The notes under the pieces: generated by a model
Database searches by the model: none
Seen by the model: only the letters and a program-made list of their open reading frames with translations
Told to the model about the DNA's origin: nothing
Position numbers and translations under genes: made by a program
Assembly (NCBI GenBank): GCA_016184225.1
Contig: JACPDA010000004.1
Location: forward strand, 672,316 to 736,315
DNA length: 64,000 nt
Source: Candidatus Daviesbacteria bacterium
GTDB lineage: Bacteria > Patescibacteriota > Microgenomatia > Daviesbacterales > UBA10151
Direction: 5' to 3'
Shown here: piece after piece, positions 16,605 through 20,138 of the stretch
How the letters are laid out: each line of letters begins with the position of its first letter
How positions within the stretch are numbered: position 1 is the first letter of the stretch

Positions 16605-17015
16605 CTACCTTACTCTGTGGCGGCGTTTAACCCTAAGCTGGGCCAGGGATTTTTCCAGGGCAGCCATAGTTTCGGCATATTCTTCATCAGATAAAGTTTG
16701 AGATAGAGCCTGTTCAGCTCTTTTTTTAGCCTCTTCCACAACCCGCTCATCTATATCTTCTGCCAAAGTGGCCAGGTCTGTCATTACGGTTAAAGTATTA
16801 TCAGAAACCTGTAAAAATCCGTCTCCGATGGCCATAGATTCTGCCTTGCCGTTTCTTTTAATAACCAGCTCCCCAGGCTCTAGTTTGGCCATTAAATTGG
16901 CATGGTGGGGTAGTATGCCAATCTCGCCTTGTTCGGTCGAGACATTAACCTGAGAAACTTCCTCATCTAGTATCAACTTTTCCGGGGTAACAATTTTTAA
17001 GTGTAACTGAGCCAT
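16605..17015 (-). CDS. atpC: F1 ATP synthase epsilon subunit
   Basis: Start at internal Met (MAQLHLKIVTPEKLILDEEVSQVNVSTEQGEIGILPHHANL) with beta-sandwich plus C-terminal helices. The longer ORF to 17216 is an unlikely N-extension. Confidence 0.8.
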   Translation of the reverse strand: MAQLHLKIVTPEKLILDEEVSQVNVSTEQGEIGILPHHANLMAKLEPGELVIKRNGKAESMAIGDGFLQVSDNTLTVMTDLATLAEDIDERVVEEAKKRAEQALSQTLSDEEYAETMAALEKSLAQLRVKRRHRVR

Positions 17016-17054
17016 TTTTATAATATAATCGTTATAGCAATTATAACCGATACC

Positions 17055-17444
17055 ATGATGAATGACCATACTTGCGAGGCAATAATTATCACCTGCATTG
17101 ATTTTAGGTTTCAGGAATACATAAATAAATGGATTGCAGAAAATTTCCGGCCTAAAACTTTTGATAGGATAGCATTTGCCGGAGGAGTGAAAAGCCTGGA
17201 TACCATCCTGGGACAAATAGAAATTGCCTACAGATTACACCATATTACGAAAGTTATTTTAATCAACCATGAAGACTGCGGGGCTTATGGGGATCCGCCG
17301 GCTGGCGGACCGGAAAAACACACAGAAGACCTAAAAAAAGCTGCTTCCCAGATAAAACAGCACTATCCTGACTTAGCAGTAGAAACTTACTATCTCCACC
17401 TGGACAGTACCTTTCAACCTATTTCAACCCCAGGGGTTGATTAG
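17055..17444 (+). CDS. short beta-carbonic-anhydrase-like protein (divergent)
   Basis: CIDFR and HEDCGA motifs resemble the beta-CA CxDxR and HxxC zinc ligand motifs. At 129 aa it is only about two-thirds of typical length. Confidence 0.3.
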   Translation: MMNDHTCEAIIITCIDFRFQEYINKWIAENFRPKTFDRIAFAGGVKSLDTILGQIEIAYRLHHITKVILINHEDCGAYGDPPAGGPEKHTEDLKKAASQIKQHYPDLAVETYYLHLDSTFQPISTPGVD

Positions 17445-18420
17445 CTTCCAACCTCTGGATTTAACCCTTGAAAAACCACTTTCATATTCTTAATATATAA
17501 AGATATGCCTTATAGAACAGTCATTCTTGCCGCAGGGGAAATTTACCACATCTTAAATAGGGGAGTAGCCGGCCTCCCCATATTTCATTCGCCCACCAAT
17601 TATTCTAGATTTATACAACTTATGGACTATTACCGATTTGCCGACACTCCTGTAAGTTTTTCTCATTTTATGAAGGTCCCTTTTGAAGAACGAAACTTAA
17701 TTTTGGATAAATTAAAGAAACAAAATAATCTGCAGGTTGAAATTTTGGTCTTTTGTCTAATGCCTAATCATTTCCATCTGCTACTAAAACAGATCACTGA
17801 AAAAGGCATCACTAATTTTATAAGCAATGTCCAAAATGGCTATGCGAAATACATCAATATTAAGGAAGACAGAGCAGGCCCCTTGTTTCAATCAGCATTT
17901 AAAGGAGTAAGGATAGAAACTGACGAACAACTACTTCATGTATCAAGATATATTCATTTGAACCCGTCGACAGGATATTTGGTGGGAATAGAAAAGTTAA
18001 TAGAATATCCTTGGTCTTCCTTACCGGATTACCTTGAAAGCGCCAATAAAAAGTTTGCTTTTGTAAGCCCCGACTTAATTCTTAGTTTCTTTGGAAGCAG
18101 AGGAAGTAGGGGGAAATATAAAGAATTTGTTTTAAATCAAGCTGAATACCAAAGAAAATTAGCTAATATAAAACATCTGGTTTTGGAATAGAAATTATAG
18201 GAATTACCAAGGGTTTGAAGCCATTCAACACCAGGGGTTGGAAGCTATGTTACTGGTTCAAATTAAAGCCAGTGATACATAAACATCAGTGAATCACATT
18301 TGTCCCACGGCCGTGGAATATTTGAAACAACTTTAGCTTGCAACCTTTCAGGTTGCCGCACACCGTGGGATATTTGAAAACTTTAGCTTTCCACACCGGG
18401 TGTGGAATCGTAAACACTGG
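17427..18420 (+). mobile_element. REPtron-like unit 1: RAYT gene with flanking family-D REPs plus a downstream REP hairpin cluster, inserted between atpC and atpD
   Basis: CAACCCCAGGGGTTGATTAGCTTCCAACC at 17427 and CACCAGGGGTTGGAAGCTAT at 18230 flank the RAYT ORF. Hairpins CCCACGGCCGTGG, GCAACCTTTCAGGTTGC and CCACACCGGGTGTGG (each preceded by TTTAGCTT) lie at 18281-18420. Confidence 0.65.
17505..18191 (+). CDS. REP-associated tyrosine transposase (RAYT)-like HUH Y1 transposase, copy 1
   Basis: HuH motif LMPNHFHLL and a downstream catalytic Tyr context (HVSRYIHLNP). Paralogous to the ORFs at 24822, 40078 and 49509. Confidence 0.75.
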   Translation: MPYRTVILAAGEIYHILNRGVAGLPIFHSPTNYSRFIQLMDYYRFADTPVSFSHFMKVPFEERNLILDKLKKQNNLQVEILVFCLMPNHFHLLLKQITEKGITNFISNVQNGYAKYINIKEDRAGPLFQSAFKGVRIETDEQLLHVSRYIHLNPSTGYLVGIEKLIEYPWSSLPDYLESANKKFAFVSPDLILSFFGSRGSRGKYKEFVLNQAEYQRKLANIKHLVLE

Positions 18421-18462
18421 TCGGTTTGAATAAACCAGTTACATCTGGTAAAATGCCAACCT

Positions 18463-18696
18463 ATGAGCAAAGAGAGTATAGTACATTGCTTGCTTGGAAA
18501 TGGGATTTGTCCAGAGGAATGTCCTCATCATGAAGTAGCTGCCAAAGTGTCAGAAAAATTAGGAGACTCATTTGAGCCTTTTTTGTCGAGGTTAGCTATT
18601 GTATTTGGAGATGGATTTATTAAAGATATAAACGTAACTCACGTAGCCGCTGCAATGGCAAGATGCGCTCTGGAGAAACCGTTAAAAGAAGGATAG
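18463..18696 (+). CDS. small hypothetical ORF (77 aa), possibly a gene remnant
   Basis: ORF only. It lies in the insertion-disrupted gap between atpC and atpD. Confidence 0.2.
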   Translation: MSKESIVHCLLGNGICPEECPHHEVAAKVSEKLGDSFEPFLSRLAIVFGDGFIKDINVTHVAAAMARCALEKPLKEG

Positions 18697-18701
18697 ATCA
18701 A

Positions 18702-20138
18702 TTACTTCAAATCTTCCGGGCCGCCGATCATGTAGAAAGCCTGTTCCGGCTTGGAATCATGCTTACCTTCCAATATTTCCTTAAACATCCTGACAGTATC
18801 TTTGATTGGTACATATTTACCTTTTCTACCGGTGAATGCCTCACCAACGAAAAATGGCTGGGTTAGCGCTCTTTGGATTTTCCTGGCCCTGGCTACTGTT
18901 AGCTTATCATCATCAGAGAGTTCTTCTATTCCCAAAATGGCAATAATATCTTGGAGATCTTTATATCTTTGCAGCACTTTTTGCACACCTACCGCCACAT
19001 CGTAGTGTTCTTGTCCCACAATGGCCGGATCCAGGGCCCTGGATGAAGAGGCCAGGGGATCAACAGCCGGGTACAGGCCCTGTTCTGTCAAAGCCCGCTC
19101 TAAGGCAATGGTGGAATCCAAATGGGCAAAAGTGGTAGCTGGTGCTGGATCAGTATAATCATCCGCCGGCACATAAACTGCCTGGACGCTAGTGATAGAA
19201 CCTTTTTTCGTGGAAGTAATCCGCTCCTGCAAGGCTCCCATTTCCGTAGCCAAGGTTGGCTGATAACCGACGGCAGAAGGGATCCGACCGAGCAGCGCTG
19301 ATACCTCAGACCCGGCTTGGGAAAACCTAAAGATATTATCAATAAAAAGCAGGACGTCTTTACCGGCCTCGTCCCGGAAATATTCTGCCATGGTGAGCCC
19401 TGTCAAACCCACCCGCAGTCTGGCCCCCGGTGGTTCATTCATTTGTCCAAATACCATGGCTGTTTTATTAATCACCCCGGAGGAAATCATTTCATGATAT
19501 AGGTCATTTCCTTCTCTGGTCCGCTCACCAACCCCGGCAAAAACCGAATAACCGCCATGTTCGGCGGCAATATTCCTAATCAGTTCCTGTATTATGACTG
19601 TTTTCCCGACTCCTGCACCGCCAAAAAGGCCGACTTTTCCACCTTTGACAAACGGGGCAATTAAATCTATAACTTTAATTCCTGTTTCAAAAACCTGGGA
19701 CTCTGTCGACTGTTCGGCAAATAAAGGAGCTGAGCGGTGGATTGGAAGCGATTTCTTTGACTTTAAAGCACCTTTTTGATCGATCGGCTCACCCAAAACA
19801 TTAAACAGCCGACCCAAAACTTCTTCACCCACCGGTACGGAAATTGGGGCTCCTGTATCCGAAACATCAGTACCCCTTCGCAACCCATCTGTAGCCCCCA
19901 TAGCTACGGCCCGGACAACTCCTTCACCCAAGTGCTGTTGGGTTTCCAGGACAAGTGCTGAGTGTTGAGTGCTAAGTGAGGAGTCTTTCTGACTTTGCAC
20001 TTTTCCCTCTTGTCCCGAGCGAAGTCGAGGGATTGCACTTTCCACTATTAATGCATTATAAATAGTAGGTAGCTTTTTTTGGTCAAACTCCACATCTACT
20101 ACTGCACCAATGATTTGTACTACTTTACCTTTGTTCAT
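18702..20138 (-). CDS. atpD: F1 ATP synthase beta subunit with N-terminal ~25-aa in-frame insertion
   Basis: Walker A GGAGVGKT and DELSEED-like region. An extra segment ([27 protein letters not shown], nt about 19949-20030) falls where canonical AtpD has about 5 residues. Confidence 0.9.

Follow-up and report, generated by a model that had tools for sequence, protein, structure and literature searches.

Does the F-type ATP synthase operon of a Candidatus Daviesbacteria bacterium owe its broken layout to a transposase? The question arises from a stretch of 64,000 nt (contig JACPDA010000004.1), hereafter called the window, in which atpC, the gene for the epsilon subunit, is separated from atpD by a gap. 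The gap holds a small gene of the Pro_CA_2 family, resembling a beta-carbonic anhydrase (CA), and a Y1 transposase gene, RAYT1, which resembles the transposases associated with repetitive extragenic palindromes (REPs), or RAYTs. Comparison with relatives made it likely that the split is an ancestral, clade-wide layout of the Daviesbacteria around a conserved pair of atpC and the CA-like gene, and that the RAYT1 unit entered a variable island afterwards.

The gap between atpD and atpC

All eight F-type ATP synthase subunit genes were present and intact by Pfam and NCBIfam. The initial annotation had placed atpB-E-F-H-A-G-D in one series and atpC about 1.7 kb away, and both were confirmed: atpBEFHAGD was unbroken (24629-18702, minus strand), and 1,686 nt lay between the atpD stop and the atpC start. 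The genes and features in the gap, all on the plus strand, were the CA-like gene, the Y1 transposase gene, a hairpin-rich spacer and a gene for a protein of 77 amino acids (aa). An atpC directly following atpD in one transcription unit was not what was found here, the gap being filled with opposite-strand genes. The AtpC of the window was 61-94% identical to AtpC of Candidatus Daviesbacteria.

The split is shared by relatives without the transposase

The gene order around atpC was compared in about 20 Daviesbacteria loci and about 55 other bacteria (loci are numbered with the prefix L). In 12 GTDB Daviesbacteria (L007, L009, L011-L017, L020, L021 and L027), the atpD-atpC gap contained the CA-like gene, encoded on the other strand and pointing away from atpC. 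The same position and orientation were found in L087, L094 and L177. A RAYT1 orthologue was present in only two of these CA-bearing gaps (L007 and L094), and the CA-like gene was kept in the gap by 13 Daviesbacteria without a RAYT there (L009, L011-L017, L020, L021, L027, L087 and L177). Since the CA-like gene was in place in these 13 genomes, the RAYT did not split the operon. Among 11 gaps scanned, those of L009, L013, L014, L017 and L021 had no hairpin with a stem of at least 6. The initial annotation had suggested that a mobile-element insertion disrupted the operon, and had named beforehand, as the observation that should refute this, relatives lacking RAYT and REP with the CA-like gene between atpD and atpC. 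Such relatives were found, and the split was clade-wide. The claim was thus refuted.

The distance between atpD and atpC ranged from 901 to 5,112 nt across the Daviesbacteria loci, and in a neighbour-joining tree of AtpD the split spanned the entire core Daviesbacteria clade. Adjacent atpD and atpC, which the initial annotation had expected in related genomes, occurred in the outgroups (L026, Levybacteria and other phyla), where the two genes were 8-175 nt apart. Apart from the CA-like gene, the open reading frames (ORFs) in the gaps were nearly all unrelated between genomes, 40 of 48 ORF clusters being singletons. The cargo included a response regulator, a glyoxalase, AbiTii with DpnII, a PaaX/Cas2-like protein, a methyltransferase and an EamA transporter. 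We interpreted the stretch from the CA-like gene to atpD as a probable recombination-prone island, the contents of which vary by genome.

Some points speak against an ancestral split with a later RAYT1 insertion. The AtpD tree is a single-gene neighbour-joining tree with midpoint rooting. Three Daviesbacteria (L008, L010 and L024) have the gap without the CA-like gene, so that the ancestral state is only inferred, and some other mobile element may have produced the first split. RAYT1 was found in the window, L007 and L094 and was missing from L009, L012 and L087. With these points included, the ancestral split around the atpC and CA-like pair was still judged likely.

In L027, the atpC match (6001-6527) was interrupted: its parts at 6001-6120 and 6309-6527 were separated by about 190 nt. 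An insertion or a frameshift within atpC could be the cause.

The CA-like gene as a companion of atp genes

The CA-like protein was 100% identical to that of NCBI HYU45_03880 (Daviesbacteria), for which NCBI places the start at 17058. The gene was divergent from atpC, with a spacer of 39 nt between the two. Residues C14, D16, R18, H72 and C75 were invariant across 32 CA-like homologues, corresponding to zinc ligands Cys/His/Cys and an Asp-Arg dyad. The AlphaFold2 model had a predicted local distance difference test score (pLDDT) of 88.2, and its 31 best Foldseek matches in the PDB were all beta-CAs (top match 1G5C, E = 3e-6; template modelling (TM) score 0.71-0.73). The protein scored under the gathering score of Pfam PF00484 Pro_CA (23.4 vs 25.7 bits), and the NCBIfam scan assigned it to no family. 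The model predicted a beta-CA fold, with CO2 hydration as the putative activity.

The linkage to atp genes extended beyond the Daviesbacteria. In GTDB, the CA-like gene lay directly after atpC in three other Patescibacteria (L033, L037 and L077), and the proteins of L033 and L037 kept the CxDxR/HxxC motifs. A metagenome scan seeded with the L037 protein returned 80 loci. The order atpD-atpC-CA on one strand was found in 52 metagenomic loci (median atpC-CA gap 95 nt, half <=51 nt). In the main cluster, 43 loci were assessable and 42 showed the atpC-CA order, which also occurred in five other clusters sharing less than 55% identity with the main one. Other geometries were also present. The CA-like gene was inside the operon in L162 (atpB-E-F-(H)-A-CA-G-D-C) and convergent with atpC in L165, and L175 had the arrangement of the Daviesbacteria.

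This recurrent pairing suggested that the Pro_CA_2 gene is an atp companion, not cargo, and that its product may be in a functional partnership with the F-type ATPase. A stronger form, in which the protein is a previously unrecognised partner of the F-type ATPase in Patescibacteria, the candidate phyla radiation (CPR), co-expressed and acting with epsilon, is tentative and, on balance, rather doubtful. A possible role would be local control of the bicarbonate or proton level available to an ATPase that probably works as a proton pump in these fermenting cells, which do not respire. The hydrolytic activity of F1-ATPase is classically stimulated by bicarbonate.

The linkage might instead be neutral synteny, inherited in a few related lineages and without function. 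We regard this as a serious contender, somewhat short of even chances. The metagenome sample was dominated by one cluster (49 of the 80 loci), and about six Pro_CA_2 clusters had no atp gene within 4 kb; the linkage is common, not universal, which weighs against a partnership. On the other hand, neutral synteny does not readily account for a linkage in four geometries (after atpC; atpA-CA-atpG; divergent before atpC; convergent after atpC), nor for its persistence at CA-like identities down to 35-40%. In the Daviesbacteria, moreover, the CA-like gene stays while all other gap content turns over. A literature search on PF20393, on carbonic anhydrase with the atp operon and on the Daviesbacteria ATP synthase found no report of the linkage; its coverage was incomplete, and this is not proof of novelty.

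A second kind of CA-like gene was noticed in some of these genomes. In some Daviesbacteria, a CDCA-like gene (PF18484, zeta-class CA repeat; 237-242 aa) immediately preceded atpC and shared its strand (L007, 5248-5976; L012, 5268-5987; L019, 1174-1926; L177, 434-1147). In L172-L174, from another lineage, it lay directly upstream of a Pro_CA_2 gene with no atp genes nearby (L173 and L174, 3169-3780; L172, 1492-2103). This adjacency, with and without atp genes, indicated that the two different CA-like genes travel together.

Transcription of atpC

How atpC is expressed was a question left by the initial annotation. A scan for sigma-70-like promoters in 16300-18900 gave TGGTCA-17-TATAAT as the top match (10/12), with the -10 box ending 24 nt before the atpC ATG. 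This candidate extends into the opening codons of the divergent CA-like gene. In 13 of 20 relatives, a perfect TATAAT began 6-19 nt before the atpC ATG (background about 0.6% per 10-nt span), independent of which gene is upstream. In L026, where atpC comes directly after atpD, atpC was preceded by a Shine-Dalgarno-like GAGAGGTGGG and by no TATAAT. The split and the conserved TATAAT supported separate expression as a prediction: atpC most likely has its own promoter, with a leader that is very short or absent.

Two points tell against such a promoter. In the window, the perfect TATAAT lies at -30, outside the range of -6 to -19 seen in relatives, and at -13 there is only an imperfect TATATT. 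The promoters and the atpD transcript end are consensus predictions, and the scan gave 9 promoter-like sites vs 6.7 expected in shuffles.

On this reading, atpBEFHAGD would form one transcription unit ending after atpD, and atpC would be transcribed separately from the 39-nt spacer. The CA-like gene would use a divergent promoter in the same spacer, making co-regulation of the two possible.

Read-through was the other explanation considered, in which atpC lacks a promoter and is expressed from the atp promoter across the island, antisense to the intervening genes. No strong intrinsic terminator follows atpD, the sole candidate being a weak 6-bp stem with a T-run (18579-18564), and terminators and promoters of CPR bacteria are poorly characterised. 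In every Daviesbacteria genome, however, such a transcript would need to pass through 0.9-5.1 kb of antisense genes that vary between genomes. The perfect TATAAT, conserved before atpC in 13 of 20 relatives whatever lies upstream and missing where atpC directly follows atpD, also argues against it. Read-through was therefore considered unlikely, and a separate promoter preferred.

The RAYT1 unit

The two ends of RAYT1 (17422-17458 and 18207-18243) formed 37-nt inverted arms that were 78% complementary. Inside these arms are two hairpins that bound the transposase gene and that the initial annotation had overlooked. HUH (NHFH) and RYIHLNP Tyr motifs were present in the translations of all four Y1 paralogues in the window. 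RAYT1 scored under the cut-off of NCBIfam REP_Tyr_transpos NF047646 (47.6 vs 80 bits), and a PDB sequence search matched nothing but ISDra2 TnpA, with an E value of 0.05 that is too weak to decide between RAYT and IS200. Despite missing the NCBIfam cut-off, the unit is RAYT/REPtron-like.

In five orthologues with 65-79% aa identity, conservation ran from the left hairpin (~17423) to the right hairpin (~18241). A conserved CCTTGAAAA within these units matches a -35 box. Their locations were mixed: two were in the same island, in the interval between atpD and the CA-like gene (L007 and L094), and three in unrelated contexts (L093, L095 and L096). The latter indicated that the unit has moved on an evolutionary time-scale, presumably by RAYT activity. 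The patchy distribution in the island fits one ancestral insertion followed by losses and repeated site-specific insertion equally well, and the two cannot be told apart.

The closest relative found, L087 (AtpD 96%, AtpC 92% and CA-like protein 81-82% identity), lacked RAYT1 and had a glyoxalase gene in its slot. Homology to the window broke at 17417 and resumed at 18297. The initial annotation was thus right that a RAYT-type mobile element lies in the gap, as this absence and the conserved ends of orthologues in unrelated contexts showed. Its inclusion of the CA-like gene in the insertion did not hold, the homology of atpC and the CA-like gene continuing into RAYT-less L087.

The left end of RAYT1 marks the position of the insertion closely. 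CA-like proteins of relatives stop at ...TFEPIS, about 121 aa. The window protein runs on with TPGVD and a stop, encoded by the RAYT1 left hairpin CAACCCCAGGGGTTGATTAG, and among the relatives compared this C-terminal extension was found only in the window protein. In L094, the same hairpin gives the CA-like gene its stop codon. RAYT1 would thus have landed precisely where the CA-like gene ends, now supplying the last five codons and stop of that gene, in the slot that a glyoxalase gene takes in close relatives.

A solo hairpin of the type of another transposase in the window, RAYT4 (CGATTACACCCTTGGGGTGTAATCG), was seen in L011 (5574-5598) immediately 3' of the CA-like gene, which is the RAYT1 insertion spot. 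This hairpin raises the possibility that insertions repeatedly target the 3' end of the gene.

No further copy of the RAYT1 hairpin was found in the window, which covers 64 kb of a genome of at least 770 kb, so that REP mobilisation by RAYT1 was not demonstrable. GC skew, used as a test of strand-biased Y1 insertion, was mostly negative, noisy and uninterpretable at 64 kb. Literature on RAYTs in Patescibacteria or CPR gave nothing relevant in a search of incomplete coverage, which is no proof of novelty.

A single REPtron-containing insertion, carrying the CA-like gene, the RAYT, the REPs and the 77-aa ORF, could also be imagined to have split an intact operon in this genome. The RAYT-type unit with hairpin ends, missing in the closest relative, and the opposite strand of every intervening gene would agree with it. 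It was nevertheless judged very improbable, given the CA-like gene at the same place in the 13 RAYT-less relatives, the clade-wide split and the homology of L087, which covers atpC, the CA-like gene and the first hairpin unit. A mobile unit comprising all of the 1.7 kb was ruled out, the conserved ends bounding only about 820 nt. A mis-assembled or chimeric contig can practically be dismissed: the source is a metagenome-assembled genome and all short-read contigs break at 16573, but six Logan contigs, independently assembled from different sequencing runs, match the window (16573-19466) with 100% identity from atpD through the island to atpC, and the same order is found in many relatives. A late RAYT1 insertion into an older split is preferred over both.

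The shared end point of the six short-read contigs covering atpC lies inside the spacer between atpC and a glycosyltransferase gene, and suggests strain variation or a repeat there.

The hairpin cluster and the 77-aa gene

The coordinates of the features in and around the gap, and of the other transposase units, are collected in Table 1.

Table 1. Positions of ATP synthase genes, gap features and transposase units in the window
Feature	Position	Strand	Basis or remark
atpC, epsilon subunit, 136 aa	16605-17015	minus	PF02823 and PF00401 (both epsilon domains); TIGR01216 119.5 bits, cut-off 67
Candidate atpC promoter, TGGTCA-17-TATAAT (17068-17040) and proximal TATATT (17028-17023)	17023-17068	minus	Sigma-70-like scan
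Pro_CA_2 beta-CA-like gene, 129 aa	17055-17444	plus	PF20393 64.3 bits, cut-off 30
RAYT1 unit, ~820 nt	17423-18241	plus	37-nt inverted arms; ends conserved in 5 orthologous units
RAYT1 left-end hairpin, then TTAGCTTCCAACCTCTGG	17425-17439	plus	
RAYT1 promoter-like TTGAAA-17-TAATAT	17468-17496	plus	
RAYT1 Y1 transposase gene, 228 aa	17505-18191	plus	PF01797 Y1_Tnp 30.7 bits, cut-off 23
RAYT1 right end	18207-18241	plus	Hairpin 18226-18240
Hairpin cluster, ~50-nt unit in tandem duplicate: hairpin, ATATTTGAAA..CTTTAGCTT, hairpin	18297-18410	plus	Direct repeats D6 and D9, spacing 50-52 nt
77-aa gene, four conserved Cys, convergent with atpD	18463-18696	plus	29 homologues at E<=1e-3
atpD	18702-20138	minus	Pfam above gathering score; TIGR01039 803.6 bits
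atpG	20143-21066	minus	Pfam above gathering score
atpA	21110-22732	minus	Pfam above gathering score
atpH	22725-23117	minus	Pfam above gathering score
atpF	23114-23620	minus	Pfam above gathering score
atpE	23685-23888	minus	Pfam above gathering score
atpB	23907-24629	minus	Pfam above gathering score
RAYT2 unit, divergent from atpB; gene 24822-25493	24762-25545	plus	Hairpin TTCCGATCCCGGATCGG at both ends
RAYT3 unit; gene 40078-40746	40009-40786	plus	Own flanking hairpin CTACCACACTTCCAGGGTGAATT
RAYT4 unit; gene 49509-50159	49446-50203	plus	Own flanking hairpin GATTACACCCCAAGGGTGTAATCGGAGGTT

The 271-nt spacer 18192-18462 folded as single-stranded DNA with z = -3.49, better than all 200 shuffles, and contained hairpins at 18303-18318, 18340-18356 and 18389-18407. 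An Rfam scan of 16300-18900 at E<=1 gave no match. The initial annotation had recorded a cluster of REP hairpins in the gap. The hairpins were indeed present, but the cluster was not simply RAYT1 cargo: its first unit (18297-18353) was found with 82% identity in RAYT-less L087, which makes the cluster older than the RAYT1 insertion.

Modules of the cluster consisting of TTTAGCTT and a hairpin recurred on the plus strand at 25931-25958, 47281, 55937-55959, 58945-58972 and 62241-62271, the last being 97% identical to 18332-18362. Several of these repeats were inside long listed ORFs (e.g. 62241 in 60150-62657, minus strand). Either the ORF starts are over-extended, or the repeats are truly coding.

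The 77-aa ORF was considered as a spurious one and this was rejected, as it belongs to a real small-protein family. Among 1.84 billion representatives searched, it had 29 homologues at E<=1e-3, of which 12 reached E<=1e-10; their usual length was about 80 aa. Pfam gave no match for it and NCBIfam no family. A promoter-like TTGAAT-17-TAAAAT with a TG extension (18426-18454) was found for the gene.

Other transposase units and repeats in the window

The four paralogous Y1 transposase genes in the window were all on the plus strand, each bracketed by its own hairpin. With 46-52% protein identity among them, there were no near-identical copies that would mark recent transposition. Among the matches listed, most Y1 database clusters occurred on a single contig.

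RAYT1 and RAYT2, the latter absent from the initial annotation, bracket the atp operon. RAYT2 was 50% identical to RAYT1 in aa sequence and scored 55.8 bits with NF047646 (cut-off 80). Its orthologues (80-83% aa identity) in L177, L178 and L179 were at the same site upstream of atpB with the same ends, and RAYT2 looks like a fixed, vertically inherited RAYT. The contigs of L178 and L179 end inside a right-end hairpin of the RAYT2 type, which hints that this hairpin is repeated in those genomes. In the window, solo RAYT2-type hairpins were found at 1340-1359 and 28759-28778, far from any transposase gene. Nothing else in the window shows directly that the hairpin belonging to a RAYT has dispersed in the manner of a REP.

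A further REP-like family of 41 nt (GTGTCTACcTAnCCCACCcctgGGGTGGgTTAGcTTCACAC) was found at 13562-13602, 14521-14561 and 39240-39280. The family is related to the termini of the RAYT1 and RAYT3 units but differs from them in its central stem, and no transposase gene adjoins its copies.

Repeats and insertions in the atp genes

The N-terminal barrel domain of AtpD had 91 residues vs 69 positions in the Pfam profile, an insertion of ~22 aa at residues ~33-60. The 477-478-column tblastn alignments in relatives suggest that this insertion is kept across Patescibacteria.

AtpA had an in-frame insertion of ~28 aa after TIINQ, encoded at 22076-22159. It was missing in the close relatives L009, L011, L012 and L017 and variable in others. 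The insertion is encoded by a (GTCGTCA)x4 heptamer palindrome of a dispersed repeat family, other copies of which were at 51157 and 53049. In this it is like the Rickettsia palindromic elements, which insert in frame.

Long palindromes of AGAGTC/GACTCT-type heptamers were found at 21050-21115, 23611-23690, 35945-36020 and 56528-56602. Two of them occupy the atpA-atpG and atpE-atpF intercistronic spacers, where they may form intercistronic stem-loops.

Discussion

The evidence above points to the following probable history. In the ancestral Daviesbacteria layout, atpC would no longer have been the last gene of the atp operon but would have stood back to back with the Pro_CA_2 gene, before the transposase arrived. 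RAYT1 would then have entered the island, the rest of which in the window would be an older tandem pair of REP-like hairpins and the conserved 77-aa gene. Seen against other Patescibacteria, the Daviesbacteria would have kept the partnership of atpC and the CA-like gene and changed its geometry.

A transposon-broken essential operon is largely explained away by this: the split is old, lineage-wide and evidently tolerated, and the RAYT is one more tenant of the island. The most interesting outcome is that Patescibacteria which diverged deeply have in common a tiny beta-CA-like gene paired with atpC and the atp operon. A conserved accessory gene embedded in the operon offers a concrete, testable way to approach the use of an F-type ATPase by CPR bacteria, which lack respiratory chains. 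In one small genome, the locus also brings together several diverged RAYT-type transposases, one site-fixed and another patchy and each with a hairpin of its own, a compact natural example that would be useful for studying RAYT domestication outside the Proteobacteria.

Among known transposable elements, the IS200/IS605 group (IS200, IS608, ISDra2) shares several features with RAYT1. Y1_Tnp was above the Pfam cut-off, and the nearest solved structures were those of ISDra2 TnpA, a very weak match at E = 0.05. RAYT1 has one gene in ~0.8 kb with subterminal hairpins at both ends (17425-17439 and 18226-18240), and orthologous units in different genomic contexts. On the other hand, its ends form inverted repeats of about 37 nt, which IS200/IS605 elements are not known to have. 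There were no identical multiple copies, and the RAYT1 orthologues diverged at roughly the rate of neighbouring genes.

REPtrons and RAYTs are known from E. coli (TnpA-REP/YafM) and from the RAYT-REPIN systems of Pseudomonas. Like these, the units in the window consist of one Y1/HUH gene, recognisable by its HUH and Tyr motifs, between short palindromes that lie in inverted arms, and every paralogue has a cognate hairpin. Each is single-copy in the window, and RAYT2 is site-fixed across genomes with solo hairpins elsewhere. They differ in scoring 47.6-55.8 bits, below the NCBIfam RAYT cut-off of 80, in the length of the proteins (about 225 aa with a C-terminal extension) and in the presence of four paralogues within 64 kb. 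RAYT1 also differs in having no extra hairpin in the window, the adjacent cluster having other stems and predating it.

The CA-like protein is most like the minimal 'Cab' type of beta-CA (M. thermoautotrophicum, PDB 1G5C), in its predicted fold and in the zinc-site motifs Cys-x-Asp-x-Arg ... His-x-x-Cys. Pro_CA_2 proteins are shorter, 120-147 aa vs about 170-220 aa for beta-CAs. The gene here also differs in being genomically tied to the atp operon; we know of no such linkage among beta-CAs.

Split F-type atp operons are known from the atp1 and atp2 clusters of cyanobacteria and chloroplasts and from the separate F0 and F1 operons of some alpha-proteobacteria. The Daviesbacteria resemble these in that an essential ATPase would be expressed from more than one transcription unit, with a layout stable within the lineage. 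In the known cases, however, beta and epsilon stay together, whereas here epsilon alone is off beta, divergently paired with a non-ATPase gene.

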